Below are positions 2,822 to 16,321 of a stretch of 28,122 nucleotides of DNA, one piece after another. The DNA lies in the UHGV virus genome UHGV-1710763, one strand, 5' to 3'. The translations under genes were made by a program, and so were the position numbers. Below the pieces are notes generated by a model. The model had not been told where the DNA came from. It saw only the letters and a program-made list of their open reading frames with translations, and did not search any database. The stretch comes from a virus. Numbering within the stretch: the first letter of the stretch is position 1; each line of letters starts with the position of its first letter.

Positions 2822-3325
2822 CTATAATTGTAGGTTGCATTCTTTACTTACCTCTTCAAGTTTAACTTCAGAGTCCTTAAGTCGTTTCTTATGAACTCTG
2901 AATCTTAGTAGTGAGATTATGATACCAGCTAAAGGAACAGCATACAAGTACCAAACATCATATACCTTTGCAGTAATCTGTGTAATAGTCAAGTCTTGAG
3001 CTATGTAGCTGATTGCTGATACGGCTAGTAATGTTGCTAAGAAGAAAACCAGTATCATAGCAATATTCAGACAACCTCTGGCATGGTATTCATGCTTAAT
3101 GCACTTATTCTTCTCTTCAACAACACTGTTGTAGTCATTTGTAAAGTCTCTGTAGAAAGCTTTCAAGTATTCTTGAGTGTAGCCTTCAAAGCAACCTGTA
3201 CCATACCAATAATCACCACCAAAATGCGCTATGATACCGGTATCCCCATTTGGTTTGGTTACTCTCAAAGAGGTGTGATGACGAGTATCTTGATAGTCTA
3301 TTTTGTATCTTTCTTCATAAATCAT
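2822..3325 (-). CDS. putative membrane protein with two hydrophobic helices
   Basis: Hydrophobic segments IAMILVFFLATLLAVSAISYIA and VWYLYAVPLAGIIISLL in the translation. Confidence 0.5.
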   Translation of the reverse strand: MIYEERYKIDYQDTRHHTSLRVTKPNGDTGIIAHFGGDYWYGTGCFEGYTQEYLKAFYRDFTNDYNSVVEEKNKCIKHEYHARGCLNIAMILVFFLATLLAVSAISYIAQDLTITQITAKVYDVWYLYAVPLAGIIISLLRFRVHKKRLKDSEVKLEEVSKECNLQL

Positions 3326-3540
3326 TTTCCAATCCCTCTCAATCGTTTATTCCACTCAAGGTCAACAAGTCTTTGCAGGACTTTCCCTCTAGGTGTTACA
3401 CCTTTTAAATCTGCATCGTAGCAACGGTAAAAGTCACCTTCAGCGTGTTTACCGTAGCATTTTCTGATATTCTGACTCCTACGATATTGTTCTAATAGGG
3501 ACAGTTTGTAGTAATCTTCAACTGTAGTTAGTTTTTTCAT
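3322..3540 (-). CDS. hypothetical protein (72 aa)
   Basis: ORF-track ORF; 4-nt start/stop overlap with the downstream gene. Confidence 0.5.
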   Translation of the reverse strand: MKKLTTVEDYYKLSLLEQYRRSQNIRKCYGKHAEGDFYRCYDADLKGVTPRGKVLQRLVDLEWNKRLRGIGK

Positions 3541-4833: not shown

Positions 4834-5222
4834 TAACGAATCACCTGTGAGACTTGAATTGCTTCAGTTACTGACAAGTCACCTACTTTCTCTTCTTTGA
4901 TAAATGTGAAGGTAAGTTCAACAGGCTCTTGCTCTTCTTGCTCAACTGGAATGCCATTAAGCTCATCTCGGATTGATTGAGTTGTCCAGTCTTCTCCACC
5001 ATCTGGATAATGGATGGCGTAAAGAGGAAACTCCATATCATACCAGCCAAATACAGGGCAACCATCTGCATCATCTCGCATTCTGCGAAGGGTGCTACCT
5101 GAGCCTGTAAAGCGAAGACTAATATTTCCATTACACTCAAAAATCACTGCGTCGGCAAGTCCAACATCTTCTCGACCATCATGGCCAAAAGTGTCAACTT
5201 TTACTTGAATCTCTTTATTCAT
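4833..5222 (-). CDS. hypothetical protein (129 aa)
   Basis: ORF-track ORF; preferred over the overlapping 4883..5140 frame because it tiles with its neighbours. Confidence 0.5.
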   Translation of the reverse strand: MNKEIQVKVDTFGHDGREDVGLADAVIFECNGNISLRFTGSGSTLRRMRDDADGCPVFGWYDMEFPLYAIHYPDGGEDWTTQSIRDELNGIPVEQEEQEPVELTFTFIKEEKVGDLSVTEAIQVSQVIR

Positions 5223-10920: not shown

Positions 10921-10997
10921 CTCTGTTTAGCTCAGCTTGGTAGAGCGTTCCGTTTGGGGCGGTAAGGCCGGAGGTTCAAGTCCTCCAACAGAGACCA
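10921..10997 (+). tRNA. tRNA-Pro (anticodon TGG)
   Basis: Hand-folded cloverleaf: acceptor CTCTGTT / AACAGAG, D-arm GCTC..GAGC, anticodon loop TTTGGGG, T-arm GGAGG-TTCAAGT-CCTCC, encoded CCA. Confidence 0.7.
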
Positions 10998-11004
10998 AAT
11001 TAAT

Positions 11005-11082
11005 GTTCCAGTAGACAAAATGGTAAAGTCACCACTCTTTCAAAGTGGATATCTGAGGGTTCAAATCCCTTCTGGAACGCCA
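11005..11082 (+). tRNA. tRNA-Glu (anticodon TTC)
   Basis: Acceptor GTTCCAG / CTGGAAC; anticodon stem CCACT / AGTGG with loop CTTTCAA; T-loop TTCAAAT; CCA. Confidence 0.75.
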
Positions 11083-11173
11083 GTTTTGACAGAAGACCAA
11101 TTACAGCAAACTTAATCTTATTCATCTGAAGGTAAATCGGACAAAGAAGAGATTTGGTCTGGTCATTAAGAAT

Positions 11174-11250
11174 TGCGGGTATAGAGAAAGGGCGTCTCAC
11201 ATGTCTCATTAGCATGGTATCGGCAGGTTCGACTCCTGCACCCGCCTCCA
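11174..11250 (+). tRNA. tRNA with CAT anticodon (Met, fMet or Ile-lysidine; identity unresolved)
   Basis: Anticodon stem CATGT / GCATG with loop CTCATTA; T-arm GCAGG-TTCGACT-CCTGC; acceptor has a 1:72 mismatch; CCA. Confidence 0.65.
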
Positions 11251-11334
11251 AATTTACAGAAGACCGTTTACAGCAATACTTATTAAATTTTTAGCGGAAA
11301 AAATTGAAATATACGGTCTGGTAATACTAAACAT

Positions 11335-11411
11335 GGTTAGGAAGCACATAAGGTATGTGCGGTCGCCTGTTAAGCGAATGGCACAGGGTTCGAATCCCTG
11401 ACTAACCGCCA
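11335..11411 (+). tRNA. tRNA-Asn (anticodon GTT)
   Basis: Acceptor GGTTAGG / ACTAACC; D-arm GCAC..GTGC; loop CTGTTAA; T-arm CAGGG-TTCGAAT-CCCTG; CCA. Confidence 0.75.
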
Positions 11412-11480
11412 AATTTAGGAGAGAAGCAATTGCTCACCGATTTGTAAGGTGCAAGTCCTTAGCCTGAATAGAAATTAAAT

Positions 11481-11568
11481 GTGTCGTTATCCCGTAGATG
11501 GTAGCGGTGGGGACTGTAAATCCCTTGTCATTGAGACTCGGTAGGTTCGACTCCTACACGGCACACCA
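11481..11568 (+). tRNA. tRNA-Tyr (anticodon GTA), class II with long variable arm
   Basis: Acceptor GTGTCGT / ACGGCAC; anticodon stem GGGGA / TCCCT with loop CTGTAAA; ~15-nt variable arm; T-arm GTAGG-TTCGACT-CCTAC; CCA. Confidence 0.65.
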
Positions 11569-11573
11569 ATAAA

Positions 11574-11651
11574 GGTTATGTAGTTTAATTTGGTTAAAAT
11601 ACTCCCCTGTCACGGGAGATGATGAGGGTTCAAATCCCTTCGTAACCGCCA
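11574..11651 (+). tRNA. tRNA-Asp (anticodon GTC)
   Basis: Acceptor GGTTATG / CGTAACC; anticodon stem CTCCC / GGGAG with loop CTGTCAC; T-loop TTCAAAT; CCA. Confidence 0.75.
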
Positions 11652-11834
11652 ATTTTGAGAGGGCTATTTAGCCCCTCCCTTAAAGGGTTCTTACGAGTAT
11701 CCTTTAAAGGAGCAGAAGACCAAATACAGCAAGTTACTTAAAATTTCAAGCCAATTTAATTTTGAAAAATTTAAAACTTGGTCTGGCTCAACAAATTTAC
11801 AGAAGACCGTTTACAGCAAAACTTAAACAATCTA

Positions 11835-11907
11835 TTTCTCCGGTAAAGAAAAGGCGAAGGTTCGATTCCTTCACTCGGCAGATGTCGAGTTGGTGTAATG
11901 GTAGCAC
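11835..11907 (+). ncRNA. circularly permuted tRNA-like element (anticodon-like hairpin, T-arm, acceptor stem closed by an AGAT loop, D-arm); candidate Y-RNA-like tRNA mimic
   Basis: Order read directly: TTTCT-CCGGTAA-AGAAA, GAAGG-TTCGATT-CCTTC, ACTCGGC-AGAT-GTCGAGT (7 bp), TG, GTG-TAATGGTAG-CAC; no 5' acceptor partner upstream and no 3' half downstream. Confidence 0.35.
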
Positions 11908-11932
11908 TTAAGATGATAAACAACGGTCTGGT

Positions 11933-12076
11933 AATTATCTTTGTAGATAAGTTATTAAGCTTACCTGTGAGTATGCGACCACAAAGGGTGAAAGGGTAAA
12001 TTCTAGATTTAAACCTAACAAGGCACATCGCTACAGACCTTAAGCAAGTCTGGGTAGCTTATCTACAAAGATAATT
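11933..12076. repeat. perfect 18-19-bp inverted repeat flanking a ~106-bp segment (long hairpin, possible RNase III site or miniature element)
   Basis: ATTATCTTTGTAGATAAG at 11934-11951 is the exact reverse complement of CTTATCTACAAAGATAAT at 12058-12075. Confidence 0.6.
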
Positions 12077-12080
12077 TAAT

Positions 12081-12156
12081 GGAAGTGTAGCAGAATGGTG
12101 ATGCGGCAGACTTTTAATCTGACAGGCGATGGGTTCGAATCCCTCCACTTCTACCA
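12081..12156 (+). tRNA. tRNA-Lys (anticodon TTT)
   Basis: Acceptor GGAAGTG / CACTTCT; anticodon loop CTTTTAA; T-loop TTCGAAT; CCA; paralogue of the Lys(CTT) gene at 13309. Confidence 0.75.
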
Positions 12157-12161
12157 AAAAT

Positions 12162-12238
12162 GGTTCAGTCGCAGATAAGGTAATGCAAGGGTTTCATAAG
12201 CCCTATGAATGTGGGTTCGATTCCCACCTGAACCTCCA
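12162..12238 (+). tRNA. tRNA with CAT anticodon (second copy; Met / fMet / Ile2 unresolved)
   Basis: Acceptor GGTTCAG / CTGAACC perfect; anticodon stem AGGGT / GCCCT with loop TTCATAA; T-arm GTGGG-TTCGATT-CCCAC; CCA. Confidence 0.7.
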
Positions 12239-12239
12239 A

Positions 12240-12315
12240 GCTGGTATAGTTAAGAAGGTTATAACACTCCCCTGATAAGGGAACATCGGTGGTTCGATTC
12301 CACCTACCAGTACCA
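12240..12315 (+). tRNA. tRNA-Ile (anticodon GAT)
   Basis: D-arm GTTA..TAAC; anticodon loop CTGATAA; T-arm GGTGG-TTCGATT-CCACC; CCA. Confidence 0.7.
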
Positions 12316-12330
12316 ATTTCAATAAAGTTG

Positions 12331-12359
12331 TTGACATTGAGATGTGACTACTTTATAGT
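12331..12359 (+). promoter_or_regulatory. strong sigma70-like promoter inside the tRNA island (TTGACA-17-TATAGT)
   Basis: TTGACA 12331-12336, exactly 17-nt spacer, TATAGT 12354-12359, with the AATAAAGTTGTTGACA upstream context. Confidence 0.6.
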
Positions 12360-12562
12360 AACCTTAGTTTTCGTTGCGTAGCGTCTATTTTGCAAATTTA
12401 AAATAAATGCAAACGACAATGTTTTTCTGGCAGTAGCTTGATAGGCTAAACACCAGTGAGGTCTTCCAATCCCTCATCAAAGAATTTGGCGTACTAGCCC
12501 ACGGTATGATTAATAAGGTGGGCATCTTTAAGGGCTTTCTAAGAGAGTCTTTAAAGATTAAT

Positions 12563-12639
12563 GCACCCTTAGTTCAATTGGATAGAGCAACGGTCTTCTA
12601 AATCGTTAGTTACAGGTTCGAATCCTGTAGGGTGTACCA
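12563..12639 (+). tRNA. tRNA-Arg (anticodon TCT)
   Basis: Acceptor GCACCCT / AGGGTGT; D-arm GTTC..GAGC; anticodon stem ACGGT / ATCGT with loop CTTCTAA; T-arm ACAGG-TTCGAAT-CCTGT; CCA. Confidence 0.75.
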
Positions 12640-12780
12640 ATTAGTTAGCAGATTACTTAGACGACCTAAGCGGGTCTTCCTGTAGGGAGGTGGTCTGTAT
12701 CTCATGTTTTCCAGAACATGTAAATAATCTGAGAAGGGGCTTTACAGTGTTGAGATAATACGGTAAGCTTCGAATTATAG

Positions 12781-12867
12781 TATGGGACGATGTTAAGACT
12801 CTAAGGCATGAGCAACGGCTTCCAACACCGTTTCAAAGGGGTTCAACTCATCCGTCCCATGCCAAAG
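12781..12867 (+). ncRNA. unresolved tRNA-like structured element (11-bp terminal stem, 9-nt-loop hairpin with CTTCCAA, T-loop-like GGGGTTCAA, ends GCCA)
   Basis: TATGGGACGATG pairs with CATCCGTCCCATG; internal hairpin AACGG-CTTCCAACA-CCGTT; no canonical cloverleaf could be drawn. Confidence 0.3.
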
Positions 12868-12877
12868 TCTTATTAGG

Positions 12878-12965
12878 GGTAGGTAGCGGCTAATGGTAGC
12901 CAAACAGTCTTGAAAACTGTTGCCACTGTAGAGATACGGTGAGGGTTCGACTCCTTTACTTACCG
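12878..12965 (+). tRNA. tRNA-Ser (anticodon TGA), class II; CCA not encoded
   Basis: Acceptor GGTAGGT / ACTTACC; anticodon stem ACAGT / ACTGT perfect with loop CTTGAAA; long variable arm; T-loop TTCGACT. Confidence 0.6.
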
Positions 12966-13223
12966 CCTAATAAGATTTTACACCGTCCATGCTTGCTCGC
13001 ATTTTCGGTTTATCCCTCGTGTATTGTCGTACACACTGATAAAGCACCTAGTAGGTGTCACGGAGAAGAGATAATATCAAGCTCTCCAAAGGTTCTAGCC
13101 ACCGGATTAAACAAGACTATGCAAAGACCTTTTTAGGTCTTTTTAGAGGGCTTCTAAGGTTATTACAGCTTGTTGTGGAACCTTGTTGCTTAGGTTCTTA
13201 GAAGTTCTCTAAAAAGATTTAAT

Positions 13224-13301
13224 GGGAGATTGACGGTAATTGGTAAACCTACCATCCTTAGAAGTTGGTGTTTGAGGGTTCGAATCCCTTGTCTCCTACC
13301 A
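13224..13301 (+). tRNA. tRNA, anticodon provisionally TAG (Leu) on a class-I-length scaffold; identity uncertain
   Basis: Acceptor GGGAGAT / GTCTCCT (two G-U pairs); loop CTTAGAA between CCATC / GTTGG (one mismatch); T-arm GAGGG-TTCGAAT-CCCTT; CCA; D-arm irregular. Confidence 0.5.
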
Positions 13302-13308
13302 AATTAAT

Positions 13309-13384
13309 GCAGGTGTAGCAAAATGGTTATGCGGCTGACTCTTAATCAGTAAGACGATGGGTTCAATTCCCTCCACCTGTACCA
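13309..13384 (+). tRNA. tRNA-Lys (anticodon CTT)
   Basis: Acceptor GCAGGTG / CACCTGT; anticodon stem GCTGA / TCAGT with loop CTCTTAA; T-loop TTCAATT; CCA. Confidence 0.75.
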
Positions 13385-13391
13385 AACAATG

Positions 13392-13467
13392 GGGGTCATA
13401 GTTTATATGGTTAAAATTCGAGTTTTGCAAACTTGGGAACTGAGTTCAATTCTCAGTGACTCCACCA
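13392..13467 (+). tRNA. tRNA-Ala (anticodon TGC)
   Basis: Acceptor GGGGTCA / TGACTCC; anticodon stem CGAGT / ACTTG with loop TTTGCAA; T-arm CTGAG-TTCAATT-CTCAG; CCA. Confidence 0.75.
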
Positions 13468-13473
13468 ATTAGT

Positions 13474-13548
13474 GCATCCATAGTTTAAACGGGAAAATTA
13501 CAGTCTTCCAAACTGAGGTTGAGGGTTCGATTCCCTCTGGATGCTCCA
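13474..13548 (+). tRNA. tRNA-Gly (anticodon TCC)
   Basis: Acceptor GCATCCA / TGGATGC perfect; loop CTTCCAA; T-arm GAGGG-TTCGATT-CCCTC; CCA. Confidence 0.75.
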
Positions 13549-13562
13549 AATTAAGGTGTGAT

Positions 13563-13976
13563 ATGAAAATATGCAGTACTTGCAGAATACCAAAAGATGA
13601 AAGCTTATTCCATAAGAATAAGAACAAGAAAGACGGTCTTCAAAGTCAATGCAAAGATTGTGCAAGACTTCGTGATGCAAAGAGTTATCAAGCAAATGAT
13701 AAAAGGAAAGAGGCTATTAAAAGCACTCGTAACTTCAAGAGAGAGCATAACAAGACTCTAGCTAGAAGGTACAAAGCTTTATGCAAATGTCATATATGTG
13801 GTGAGAAAGAACCAGTTGCACTGGATTTACACCATACAGACCCTTCCCAGAAAGATTTGAATCCTGCATCACTTTATTCATACTCCACAAAAAGATTAAA
13901 AGATGAAATCAGAAAGTGCATTGTCTTGTGCGCTAACTGTCACAGAAAAGTACATGCTGGTATCATAAAAGTTTAA
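13563..13976 (+). CDS. HNH family endonuclease (free-standing homing-endonuclease-like gene)
   Basis: Cys pairs CKDC and CKCHIC plus an HNH core (LDLHHTD ... N ... CANCHRKVH) in the translation; sits between tRNA-Gly and tRNA-Thr. Confidence 0.7.
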   Translation: MKICSTCRIPKDESLFHKNKNKKDGLQSQCKDCARLRDAKSYQANDKRKEAIKSTRNFKREHNKTLARRYKALCKCHICGEKEPVALDLHHTDPSQKDLNPASLYSYSTKRLKDEIRKCIVLCANCHRKVHAGIIKV

Positions 13977-13977
13977 T

Positions 13978-14054
13978 GCTGCTTTCGTATAATTGGCTAT
14001 TACACATCCCTTGTAAGGATGGAAATGCAGGTTCGAGTCCTGTGAGCAGCACCA
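13978..14054 (+). tRNA. tRNA-Thr (anticodon TGT)
   Basis: Acceptor GCTGCTT / GAGCAGC; anticodon stem CATCC / GGATG perfect with loop CTTGTAA; T-loop TTCGAGT; CCA; starts 2 nt after the HNH stop codon. Confidence 0.8.
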
Positions 14055-14149
14055 ATTCAGAGGTCAAGTGAAAGACCGCTGGTGTCAACTGAAGACCGTA
14101 ACAAATTCCACGGAGTTGAGTTAGCGGCACAACTTCAGACCTCTTTCAT

Positions 14150-14224
14150 ACTCGCTTAGTTTATATGGTAAAACATCACCCTTACAAGATGAAGAGAAAG
14201 GTTCAAGCCCTTTAGTGAGTACCA
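14150..14224 (+). tRNA. tRNA-Val (anticodon TAC)
   Basis: Acceptor ACTCGCT / AGTGAGT; D-arm GTTT..AAAC; loop CTTACAA; T-arm AAAGG-TTCAAGC-CCTTT; CCA. Confidence 0.65.
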
Positions 14225-14225
14225 T

Positions 14226-14303
14226 GTTCCAGTATCCCAATTGGCAGAGGATGCAAGCTCAAACCTTGTACTAGTGACGGTTCGAATCCGTCTTGGAACA
14301 CCA
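14226..14303 (+). tRNA. tRNA with CAA anticodon (Leu-type) but only a 6-nt variable region
   Basis: Acceptor GTTCCAG / TTGGAAC; anticodon stem GCAAG / CTTGT with loop CTCAAAC; T-arm GACGG-TTCGAAT-CCGTC; A73; CCA. Confidence 0.6.
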
Positions 14304-14308
14304 ATTTT

Positions 14309-14384
14309 GCAGGATTAGTTCAAATGGATAGAGCAACAGTCTACGAAGCTGTTAATAGGGGTTCGAATCCCTTATCCTGCGCCA
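14309..14384 (+). tRNA. tRNA-Arg (anticodon ACG)
   Basis: Acceptor GCAGGAT / ATCCTGC perfect; D-arm GTTC..GAGC; anticodon stem ACAGT / GCTGT with loop CTACGAA; T-loop TTCGAAT; CCA. Confidence 0.8.
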
Positions 14385-14403
14385 ATTTAAAGAGGCTATT
14401 TAG

Positions 14404-14961
14404 ATGAGATATTTGAAGTATGCTTCATGGATTTTCTTAGCTTTGTTAGAGCCATTTGCAGCAATCTTAGCAGTTATCTTAGCACCTTTTGTAGTTCCAT
14501 TCTACAGTGAGAAGAAAGGACACTTACCTTTCGGATTCAGATGGATGGAGACATATGACAACCCAATTGATGGTGATGAAGGTCACGTTAAAAGATGGGC
14601 TAATATTAGATGGATTGGTAAACTAGGTGTCTACATGCAAAGAGTCGGATGGCTCTGGAGAAACAAAGCTTATAACTTCTCTTACCATGTATTAGGAAGA
14701 GATGTAAAAGATGTTACTAAGTGGAAAGGTAATATCAACGTAAGTTCTAACCCTGAAGATAATCAGACAGGTTATCTCCTAATGTGGAACAGCAATGCTT
14801 GGGGATTATTCGCTTTTATCCCATCAATTAAAATCTTTGGTAAACAGTTCTACTGGAGAATTTATATTGGGTGGAAGCTAAAAAGTGTTGTCCCAGAAGA
14901 AAGAGCATTCTCAAGGGAAAGAGTTATGTTGGCATTCTTTATTCATCCACTAAGAAAGTAA
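14404..14961 (+). CDS. hypothetical membrane protein (hydrophobic N-terminus, Trp-rich)
   Basis: ORF-track ORF; N-terminal hydrophobic stretch WIFLALLEPFAAILAVILAPFVV; embedded between tRNA genes. Confidence 0.55.
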   Translation: MRYLKYASWIFLALLEPFAAILAVILAPFVVPFYSEKKGHLPFGFRWMETYDNPIDGDEGHVKRWANIRWIGKLGVYMQRVGWLWRNKAYNFSYHVLGRDVKDVTKWKGNINVSSNPEDNQTGYLLMWNSNAWGLFAFIPSIKIFGKQFYWRIYIGWKLKSVVPEERAFSRERVMLAFFIHPLRK

Positions 14962-14969
14962 AGATTTAA

Positions 14970-15045
14970 AGGGGATTAGTTTACAAGGTTAAAACCTCGG
15001 TCTTTGAAATCGAAGAAGTTGGTTCAATTCCAACATCCCCCGCCA
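14970..15045 (+). tRNA. tRNA-Gln (anticodon TTG)
   Basis: D-arm GTTT..AAAC; anticodon stem TCGGT / ATCGA with loop CTTTGAA; T-arm GTTGG-TTCAATT-CCAAC; weak 1:72 pair; CCA. Confidence 0.7.
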
Positions 15046-15047
15046 AT

Positions 15048-15126
15048 GCTCCATTACTCCAATTGGCAGAGAGGCCAGACTTAAAATCTGTGTTATGTAT
15101 CGGTTCGAATCCGATATGGAGTACCA
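15048..15126 (+). tRNA. tRNA with TAA anticodon (Leu-type) but only a 7-nt variable region
   Basis: Acceptor GCTCCAT / ATGGAGT; anticodon loop CTTAAAA; T-arm ATCGG-TTCGAAT-CCGAT; A73; CCA. Confidence 0.6.
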
Positions 15127-15131
15127 AATTT

Positions 15132-15207
15132 AGCGGTATAGCATAACTGGCAATGCAACAGTCTCTGAAGCTGTCTTATTAAGGTTCAAATCCTTATGCC
15201 GCTGCCA
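15132..15207 (+). tRNA. tRNA-Gln (anticodon CTG)
   Basis: Acceptor AGCGGTA / TGCCGCT; anticodon stem ACAGT / GCTGT with loop CTCTGAA; T-arm TAAGG-TTCAAAT-CCTTA; CCA. Confidence 0.7.
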
Positions 15208-15238
15208 CTTCTAAGGGTTCTTACGAGAGTCCTTAAAT

Positions 15239-15314
15239 GTGGCCTTATCATAAATGGTAATGACCCATGCTGTGAACATGGTCTATACGGGTTCAAATCC
15301 CGTAGGTCACCCCA
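15239..15314 (+). tRNA. tRNA-His (anticodon GTG)
   Basis: Acceptor GTGGCCT / AGGTCAC; D-arm TCAT..ATGA; anticodon stem CCATG / CATGG perfect with loop CTGTGAA; C73 discriminator; CCA. Confidence 0.75.
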
Positions 15315-15321
15315 ATTTATA

Positions 15322-15396
15322 GTCCAAGTAGCTTATATGGTTAAAGCGCGTGTCTGAAAAACATGAGAAGAGGGTTCAAATCCCACTGGACTACCA
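15322..15396 (+). tRNA. tRNA-Phe (anticodon GAA); acceptor register ambiguous
   Basis: D-arm GCTT..AAGC; anticodon stem CGTGT / ACATG with loop CTGAAAA; T-loop TTCAAAT; ends ACCA. Confidence 0.65.
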
Positions 15397-15412
15397 ATTT
15401 CAAAGGTGCTTA

Positions 15413-16147
15413 ATGAAAGAGATGACAGAACAAGGTAAGGAGATTTTTAATCTCTTAAAAACCGGTAAAGGGTTTTCTAACCCACTTATTACTGGTGCAG
15501 CAGTTCTCGGTGGAACCGTAGCTGCCTCTACATCACTTGTAAGCTCTATTAGCTCTGTAACAGACCCTACAACGAAGGAGAAACTTGTTGCTGCTGGACT
15601 TACAACAGTTCTTCTAAACAGCTTTACAACAAGCCTGACAAGCACTACAGCAACTACTAAGACCCTAACAGACTACGGTCAAAAGTCTATTGATGAGTTT
15701 TCATCACGTATGCAGGTGGCAAAGGGATATTCCAATGTTATGGGTGCAGCAGGAGAACAAGTTGGTTGTACACCATTCAGTGGTATTATGGGTGTTGCTA
15801 CAGAGTATGGTCAGCAAGCTATTGACATGATTAACAGCACACTAGACAGTGTTAACGGTGTGTTAAGTGACTTACAAGATGCTATTGACAAGGGTCTTGA
15901 TACTGTTTCTGATTTAGCTAACCAAGCTGTAAGTAAGATTAATGAAGGTATTTCAAAGATTACAGCTTATGCAGATGAAGTTGTGCAGATGATTGAAGAA
16001 GAAGCTGCCCTTATTGCAGAGTACCTTAAAACGAATATCAATGGGTTCTTAGCAGGTATCTTACCAGACTGGTTTGATGATGCCTGTAAAACTGGTGTAA
16101 TTGACACTATTGCAACACCAGAAATGAAGAACGCATTACAGAAATAA
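15413..16147 (+). CDS. hypothetical Ser/Thr-rich protein; start moved downstream of the track ORF (15350) to the first ATG clear of tRNA-Phe
   Basis: Track ORF 15350..16147 overlaps the tRNA at 15322-15396; the in-frame ATG at 15413 has AAAGGTG upstream. Confidence 0.55.
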   Translation: MKEMTEQGKEIFNLLKTGKGFSNPLITGAAVLGGTVAASTSLVSSISSVTDPTTKEKLVAAGLTTVLLNSFTTSLTSTTATTKTLTDYGQKSIDEFSSRMQVAKGYSNVMGAAGEQVGCTPFSGIMGVATEYGQQAIDMINSTLDSVNGVLSDLQDAIDKGLDTVSDLANQAVSKINEGISKITAYADEVVQMIEEEAALIAEYLKTNINGFLAGILPDWFDDACKTGVIDTIATPEMKNALQK

Positions 16148-16148
16148 T

Positions 16149-16241
16149 GGAAGATTAACCCTAAAAGGTAAGGGAGCAGTTTGCTAAACTGCCAGTAGCT
16201 GAGAAATCGGTGTACCAGTTCAAGTCTGGTATCTTCCTCCA
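16149..16241 (+). tRNA. tRNA-Ser (anticodon GCT), class II with long variable arm
   Basis: Acceptor GGAAGAT / ATCTTCC perfect; anticodon stem GCAGT / ACTGC perfect with loop TTGCTAA; ~20-nt variable arm; T-arm ACCAG-TTCAAGT-CTGGT; CCA. Confidence 0.8.
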
Positions 16242-16245
16242 ATTT

Positions 16246-16321
16246 GAATCCGTGACAGAAATGGCTATGTGCCTGTCTGCAAAACAGGTTTATAAGGGTT
16301 CGAGTCCCTTCGGATTCTCCA
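16246..16321 (+). tRNA. tRNA-Cys (anticodon GCA)
   Basis: Acceptor GAATCCG / CGGATTC perfect; anticodon stem CCTGT / ACAGG perfect with loop CTGCAAA; T-arm AAGGG-TTCGAGT-CCCTT; CCA. Confidence 0.8.

Follow-up and report, generated by a model that had tools for sequence, protein, structure and literature searches.

According to a 2023 review, tRNA-Leu carries a long variable arm everywhere save in animal mitochondria, where tRNA-Leu(UUR) has a short variable loop and A73 and A14 serve as identity elements, and the type I form with its short variable loop was treated by Fan et al. in 2019 as a Streptomyces rarity (PMC6614811). In Streptomyces coelicolor, a type I tRNA-Leu(CAA) with the 5-nt loop ACAGC shares one cytoplasm with tRNA-Leu of type II and a single leucyl-tRNA synthetase (LeuRS) (PMC6614811); engineered, arm-less variants of E. 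coli tRNA-Leu are charged by E. coli LeuRS if A73 and the D/T-loop contacts are intact (PMC9976931); and a mycobacterial tRNA cluster includes a Leu-UAG whose variable loop is short where that of the chromosomal isoacceptor is long (PMC6582537). Here we describe three tRNA-Leu genes with variable regions of 5-7 nt in the virus genome UHGV-1710763, a stretch of 28,122 nucleotides (hereafter the window, by which we mean the whole stretch of DNA analyzed) from a Felixounavirus, a phage of the Felix O1 type that infects E. coli and Salmonella. Their sequence identity elements support their reading as true type I leucine tRNAs, a form that proves to be considerably more widespread than these precedents would suggest.

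The likeness to each of these systems is partial. The S. coelicolor loop follows an NNAGY pattern that resembles the window's CAA and UAA genes, but it ends in C48 and the tRNA is charged by a LeuRS with a specialized leucine-specific domain and not by the E. coli enzyme (PMC6614811), whereas the phage tRNAs, if they work at all, must do so with an enterobacterial LeuRS. The mitochondrial tRNAs are degenerate, are served by a dedicated mitochondrial LeuRS and have no demonstrated sequence relationship to the phage genes, in which the D and T loops are canonical. The engineered variants, for their part, are laboratory constructs, while the phage genes are natural, under selection, and keep exactly the features on which the activity of those constructs depends. 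The mycobacterial case comes from another host phylum and is a passing mention in which identity was not analyzed; its array also contains an HNH endonuclease gene, comparable to an HNH-like open reading frame (ORF) in the window (PMC6582537).

The tRNA island of the window comprises 26 genes called by ARAGORN, all within 10921-16321 on the + strand, and three of them are tRNA-Leu:

13224-13301, + strand: type I tRNA-Leu(UAG), 78 nt including CCA; ARAGORN, Rfam 40.0 bits
14226-14303, + strand: type I tRNA-Leu(CAA), 78 nt including CCA; ARAGORN, Rfam 43.6 bits
15048-15126, + strand: type I tRNA-Leu(UAA), 79 nt including CCA; ARAGORN, Rfam 47.5 bits

All three match the Rfam model RF00005 with E values of 2e-6 to 2e-8 and exceed its gathering score of 29 bits. 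The anticodon of Leu-UAG lies at 13259-13261 within the loop CTTAGAA (13257-13263) and is followed by the 5-nt variable region TGTTT (13269-13273); that of Leu-CAA lies at 14260-14262 within CTCAAAC (14258-14264), with the 6-nt variable region ACTAGT (14270-14275); and that of Leu-UAA lies at 15082-15084 within CTTAAAA, with the 7-nt GTTATGT (15092-15098). The three genes are alike in having A73, an encoded CCA, seven of seven acceptor pairs, the T-loop TTCGAAT and a 7-nt anticodon loop with U33, and their variable regions, ending in U48, fall short of the stem-loop arm of more than 10 nt that defines class II; the arms of E. coli K-12 leuW, leuZ, leuX and leuQ measure 13-15 nt. The D arm of Leu-CAA, TCCC-AATTGGCAG-AGGA, combines a 3-bp stem with a C13.A22 mismatch, and that of Leu-UAA, a paralogue of Leu-CAA, reads CTCC-AATTGGCAG-AGAG. 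The original prediction, made by eye, had placed three Leu-type anticodons (TAG, CAA and TAA) in the genes starting at 13224, 14226 and 15048, which is where both ARAGORN and the Rfam model put them; its variable-region lengths, loop sequences and A73 likewise agree in every detail with a gene-by-gene division into arms. The possibility it had kept in reserve, that these genes have another identity and had been misread, finds no footing in the automated anticodon placement, which is the same as the reader's.

That the short cloverleaf is maintained can be read from an alignment of 24 distinct short Leu tRNAs taken from the window, T5, FO1a, a Seunavirus and 40 IMG/VR loci retrieved with a Leu-UAG pattern. 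In the standard cloverleaf, with the variable region set at 5-7 nt, 96.7% of the cells pair, vs. 40-54% when the partners are slid by one to three columns; both-sided changes occur in 16 of 20 pairs, the observed covariation score is matched by none of 500 shuffles, and four helices are supported, where the mixture of isoacceptors makes this covariation speak to the upkeep of the short scaffold and not to the expression of each gene. These data indicate a genuine, strongly covarying short cloverleaf. Single-gene matches, moreover, are found in 355 (Leu-UAG), 292 (Leu-CAA) and 264 (Leu-UAA) phage records, and the recurrence of the same three genes in about 260-355 records, together with the covariation, argues that the pattern is not due to chance.

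As for the amino acid, E. coli LeuRS ignores both the anticodon and the long arm, with arm-less variants staying active, and depends on A73, the Levitt pair A15:U48, G18G19, A20a, U8:A14 and D/T-loop contacts (review PMC9976931). A73, A15:U48, G18G19, A20a and U8:A14 are all present in the window's three genes, in Leu-UAG with the D-arm register shifted by one base. In the alignment, the invariant columns include U8, A14, A15, G18, A20a, A22, U48 and A73, with G19 at least 90% conserved, and across three samples A73 is found in 182 of 184 distinct short Leu genes. The combination of A15, U48 and A73 is not by itself specific to leucine; because 34 of the 229 distinct non-Leu tRNAs of class I in the same phage arrays have it too, our claim rests on a fuller signature that adds a three-base beta region with A20a and a non-Watson-Crick 13:A22 pair, and this signature is carried by 22 of 25 distinct short Leu genes and by none of the 229. 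The D-arm design of the host's four Leu genes matches that of the phage genes, and A15:U48 and A73 are common to long and short Leu tRNAs, six short genes covarying to G15:C48. In a 2025 study of Shigella phage Sf14, whose 26-tRNA array is orthologous to that of the window, tRNAscan-SE isotype models put Leu first for all three genes (67.4, 49.1 and 60.2), and the variable region is never mentioned (PMC12482277). Thus the isotype models, which had been suggested as a check, rank leucine first for the Sf14 orthologues, narrowly so for UAG, and the other alternative of the original prediction, that the phage encodes atypical Leu tRNAs, is favored by the LeuRS determinants and the D-arm signature, but in a form that is not peculiar to this phage.

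In light of these results, we consider it probable that the three genes are functional type I leucine isoacceptors, charged by the host LeuRS and decoding UUA/UUG and CUN. Expression, leucine charging and use in translation, which we infer from the genes, their structure, conservation, covariation, determinants and distribution, would begin with transcription within the phage's 26-gene array, followed by leucylation by the host's own LeuRS via A73 and the elbow, for which the arm would not be needed, and on the ribosome the charged tRNAs would decode UUA/UUG and CUN codons, which are common in this 39% GC phage. They account for the bulk of Leu codons in the ORFs of the window (GC 39.3%), with TTA at 22.8%, TTG at 14.4%, CTT at 29.8%, CTA at 10.9% and CTG at 16.0%; in E. 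coli, CTG dominates among Leu codons, and TTA, TTG and the other CTN codons are read by minor tRNAs. A search of the window for an ORF of LeuRS size returned none, the longest ORF being 533 aa. Since the host has type II genes of its own, tRNA-Leu of type I and of type II would coexist in the infected cell, where one LeuRS may act on both. A suppressor or recoding role was considered and ruled out, as the anticodons UAG, CAA and UAA read the sense codons CUN and UUR and not stops.

Several observations weigh against this interpretation, and Leu-UAG is the least secure of the three genes. It has the lowest Rfam score (40 bits) among the 11 tRNAs scanned between 13150 and 15200, an irregular 18-nt D arm (ACGGT-AATTGGTAA-ACCT) and a U30.U40 mismatch in the anticodon stem. 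In the ARAGORN register, position 11 faces C, while the Rfam fit starts the acceptor stem at G2, pairs GGT with ACC and gives up U8; we prefer the former because the T5 homologue aligns with it base for base with normal U8 and G9, and the D stem would then consist of A10-U25, a bulged pyrimidine at position 11 (C here, T in FO1a) and the pairs G-C, G-C and U-A. The anticodon loops further differ from those of the host isoacceptors at positions 32, 37 and 38 (CUUAGAA vs. UUUAGGU for Leu-UAG and CUCAAAC vs. UUCAAAA for Leu-CAA), with A37 in Leu-UAG in place of the host's G37, and with C38 in Leu-CAA. Given the requirements of TrmD and MiaA, we assume that Leu-UAG and Leu-CAA probably lack the host-type modification at position 37 and that their anticodon-loop modifications are probably unlike the host's. 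Single-sequence minimum free energy folding alone misses the cloverleaves, with z-scores of -0.3 to -1.6, a result we put aside given how frequently in silico folding of tRNAs goes wrong and how decisive the comparative evidence is. The Sf14 study, which ties such anticodon-loop changes to resistance to anticodon nucleases, reports a small isotype margin for Leu-UAG (Leu 67.4, Ile2 65.7, Lys 63.4) (PMC12482277). Finally, E. coli LeuRS failed to leucylate the S. coelicolor type I tRNA-Leu(CAA) and was described as type II-only (Fan et al. 2019, PMC6614811). It is important to note that this negative result may not transfer to the phage genes, because the S. coelicolor tRNA has C48 where they have the A15:U48 pair needed by E. 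coli LeuRS; the failure may thus be due to C48 instead of the missing arm, although it still calls for genuine caution. The minimum variable loop for activity was determined by the same authors as 5 nt including nucleotide 48 (PMC6614811), and the variable regions of the phage genes measure 5-7 nt and end in U48.

The narrow isotype margin, in which Arg also comes close behind Leu (PMC12482277), and the occurrence of A15, U48 and A73 in the 34 non-Leu tRNAs noted above are what could be said for class I scaffolds derived by drift from tRNAs for Lys, Arg or Ile that, under Leu anticodons, are charged with another amino acid. We regard this as very improbable, in that the full D-arm signature was found only in genes with Leu anticodons. 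In E. coli, LysRS, ArgRS, IleRS, ValRS and MetRS need anticodon bases that are absent here, and of the identities that do not depend on the anticodon, the three genes show neither the G3:U70 of alanine nor the G-1 of histidine and lack the arm that SerRS needs. The host, in addition, reads these codons as leucine, and a second meaning would scramble the phage's proteins. The inactivity of E. coli LeuRS on the Streptomyces tRNA speaks, on the other hand, for the idea that the genes specify stable tRNA-like RNAs charged poorly or not at all by the host enzyme and serving, for instance, as nuclease decoys or regulators instead of decoders, and a paper on T5 tRNA-region deletion mutants suggests, by its title, that such genes are deletable. 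We deem this improbable as well: the full LeuRS identity set, the 7-nt anticodon loops with U33, the T-loop and CCA are kept across hundreds of genomes, the three anticodons stay distinct and match heavily used phage codons, and a decoy would need no three Leu anticodons.

Leucine tRNA genes of the short kind are found well beyond the Felixounavirus island. T5 has two Leu genes of 77 nt with 5-nt variable regions; a Seunavirus combines a short UAG with a long UAA; Erwinia phage Coenus and Lactobacillus phage LpeD carry three short Leu genes each, and Xanthomonas phage X1 carries a short one beside a long one. An IMG/VR scan open to both classes (CTTAAAA, a gap of 12-42 nt, GGTTCRANTCC), on which alone our frequency estimates are based, yielded at least 120 matches, at least 23 of them with class I spacing, 22 of 23 confirmed by ARAGORN; among the 80 matches listed, 13 short and 58 long tRNA-Leu(UAA) genes were confirmed, which puts the short form at about 18-20% for a pattern that fixes C32 and the G52-C62 pair and for contigs that may include host tRNA genes beside prophages. 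In two Seunavirus-type loci (L003 1807-1892 and L034 7782-7867), the long-armed Leu-UAA, 86 nt in length, stands beside a short Leu-UAG; in GenBank MZ326168, the long Leu-UAA is unannotated as a tRNA and a hypothetical-protein coding sequence (1711-1899 of the locus) is annotated across it. Another IMG/VR contig (L012, 165.7 kb) carries, adjoining three 76-nt type I Leu genes, a long-armed 95-nt gene at 3304-3398 that ARAGORN calls tRNA-Pyl with the anticodon cta and that is amber-suppressor-like; it may be a phage suppressor tRNA.

The shortening is confined to leucine. The Tyr and Ser genes of the same island, which the original prediction had correctly taken for class II, have arms of 15, 20 and 21 nt:

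11481-11568, + strand: tRNA-Tyr(GUA), class II comparator, 15-nt variable arm
12878-12967, + strand: tRNA-Ser(UGA), class II comparator, 20-nt variable arm
16149-16241, + strand: tRNA-Ser(GCU), class II comparator, 21-nt variable arm

The same holds in a sample of 143 loci from two IMG/VR scans, with gaps of 14-44 nt (which leaves out 5-nt loops) and 12-42 nt, where Leu is short in 47 genes and long in 134 (47/181), while Ser (53/53) and Tyr (22/22) are always long, and in the first sample, retrieved with the Leu-UAG pattern, Leu is short in 87 of 91 genes. Taken over every locus examined, the 115 Ser and 49 Tyr genes have long arms, the lone nominal exception being a doubtful 74-nt 'Ser(act)' call in the first sample. 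Such a difference would be expected from the synthetases: serine identity rests primarily on the arm, which is also bound by bacterial TyrRS, while E. coli LeuRS takes no account of it. The shortness itself may be neutral, a legacy of an old type I lineage, or selected.

Nor is the short form restricted to viruses. Bacterial genomes scanned with class I spacing yielded at least 110 confirmed type I tRNA-Leu(UAA) genes, at least 106 of them distinct, and among the matches listed nearly all are lone chromosomal genes in Actinobacteria of 60-75% GC. The hosts (loci L194-L313) include Nocardioides, Nocardia, Mycobacterium, Gordonia and Arthrobacter, among others, as well as some Planctomycetota, Bacteroidota and Firmicutes. 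That tRNA-Leu of bacteria is normally class II thus holds for the E. coli host but not as a universal rule. The actinobacterial genes resemble the window's CAA and UAA genes in their D arm (GCCC-AAYYGGCAG-AGGC), NNAGT loop, A73 and A15:U48, and differ from them in being single genes with 5-nt loops in 60-75% GC genomes, where the window's genes have 6- and 7-nt loops and AT-rich stems and lie in a phage array. Sequence comparison places Leu-CAA and Leu-UAA in a presumably old type I lineage, characterized by the D arm NCCC-AAYYGGCAG-AGGN and the variable loop NNAGU, to which chromosomal genes of Actinobacteria and genes from phages with many different hosts also belong. Leu-UAG is assigned by the same comparison to a second lineage, common to T5 and Seunavirus. 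Among known systems, the tRNA-Leu(UAG) and tRNA-Leu(UAA) genes of T5/BF23 (Tequintavirus) come close: the T5 Leu-UAG is a direct homologue, 83.8% identical to that of the window, and shares with it the loop CTTAGAA, the T arm, the 5-nt variable region, A73, A15:U48 and the U30.U40 mismatch; its D arm, however, is regular (ATGG-AATTGGCAT-ACAT), whereas an additional base and a D stem that is shifted or bulged mark the Felix-type gene. The T5 Leu-UAA is short like its counterpart in the window, but the Felix CAA/UAA lineage differs from it, and in those T5-like loci that were examined ARAGORN called no isoacceptor with the anticodon CAA.

Closer to the window, the whole 5.6-kb tRNA island is 97% identical to Felixounavirus genomes, and Felix O1-like records (Felix O1, FO1a, VpaE1 and others) reach 93-98% identity; the annotated ones already label these genes as three tRNA-Leu. 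Among such otherwise ~97% identical phages, differences in Leu-UAG are almost confined to the anticodon stem (13252-13268 in the window; compare L002 4001-4078 and L027 4546-4623). The alleles are CCATC/GTTGG in the window, with its U30.U40 mismatch, TCTCG/CGAGA in FO1a, and CCTCG/CGAGG, and the changes are fully compensated; the window's allele resembles the CCGTC/GTCGG of T5, with which it has the mismatch in common. This pattern suggests that phages infecting the same cell undergo gene conversion or that the stem is under selection. A different rearrangement is seen in L027, an IMG/VR copy of an 84,419-bp genome of the Salmonella phage Si3 type, where a single fused 'Leu-taa' gene (5124-5202) takes its 5' acceptor strand and D stem (GTTCCAG TA TCCC) from the CAA gene and the remainder from the UAA gene, and the ~0.8 kb separating the two paralogues, including Arg-ACG and Gln-UUG, is gone. 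Recombination within the AATTGGCAGAG D loop common to both paralogues is the likely origin. The window's Leu-UAA gene also has a 100% identical match in GenBank GU169904.1 (62026-62103), a record of Staphylococcus phage SA1, which has the look of an assembly mixed with a Felix O1-like phage and not of true sharing.

The turnover of the Leu-UAG anticodon stem among near-identical phages, and the recurrence of short Leu tRNAs across many unrelated phage arrays, would both be compatible with an adaptive loss of the arm, by which phage Leu tRNAs escape toxins, of the host or of a competitor, that pick out class II tRNAs by their long arm, such that translation continues while the host's tRNA-Leu is under attack. 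The nucleotidyltransferase toxins MenT3 and AbiEii do favor long-armed class II tRNAs, and retron-Eco7 and Septu cut tRNA-Tyr in its variable loop, where T5 tRNA-Tyr resists by virtue of its different loop. We nevertheless find such counter-defense unlikely. A search of the literature found no enterobacterial defense aimed at the arm of tRNA-Leu; the same architecture is that of a single chromosomal gene in many Actinobacteria and so need not be a phage invention; and phage Tyr and Ser tRNAs keep their arms although that of Tyr is a proven target. The accompanying proposition, that the long arm is a liability shed by phages and that LeuRS is the only synthetase for class II tRNAs able to do without it, is doubtful to a similar degree.

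The island has further features of its own. tRNA-Ser(UGA) is the sole gene of the 26 without an encoded CCA, with G73 followed by CCT, the other 25 encoding it. Three ORFs lie amid the tRNA genes: one at 13563-13976 encodes 137 aa with CxxC...HH...CxxCH motifs and a subthreshold HNH match (17.4 bits vs. a cutoff of 21.4), one at 14404-14961 a DUF7338 protein (E value 1.6e-61) and one at 15413-16147 a DUF7217 protein (E value 9.5e-87). In FO1a, the same island holds two extra annotated HNH endonuclease genes at places where the tRNA genes of the window stand close together.

Both the genes and the type I kind are already known, and it is well supported by the sequences compared here that the latter is more widely spread than the literature acknowledges; no new category of molecule is involved. 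In the literature searched, no paper was found to describe the tRNA-Leu of T5 or of Felix O1 explicitly as short-armed, an older description outside that literature being possible, and the phrase 'type I tRNALeu' is used by Fan et al. alone. Type I tRNA-Leu occurs in classic coliphages such as Felix O1 and T5, in about 18-20% of viral tRNA-Leu(UAA) genes among the matches listed, and in many Actinobacteria. This makes the phage genes a natural check on what was found in vitro, namely that the arm goes unread by bacterial LeuRS, and their compact, E. coli-compatible Leu scaffold could serve tRNA engineering. It also yields a hypothesis that ties tRNA architecture to anti-phage tRNA toxins, and if counter-defense were true, type I tRNA-Leu would represent a widespread structural immune evasion. 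On that same reading, it would also provide natural proof that type I tRNA-Leu is charged in vivo by an enterobacterial LeuRS, against the published view of the enzyme as acting on type II only.

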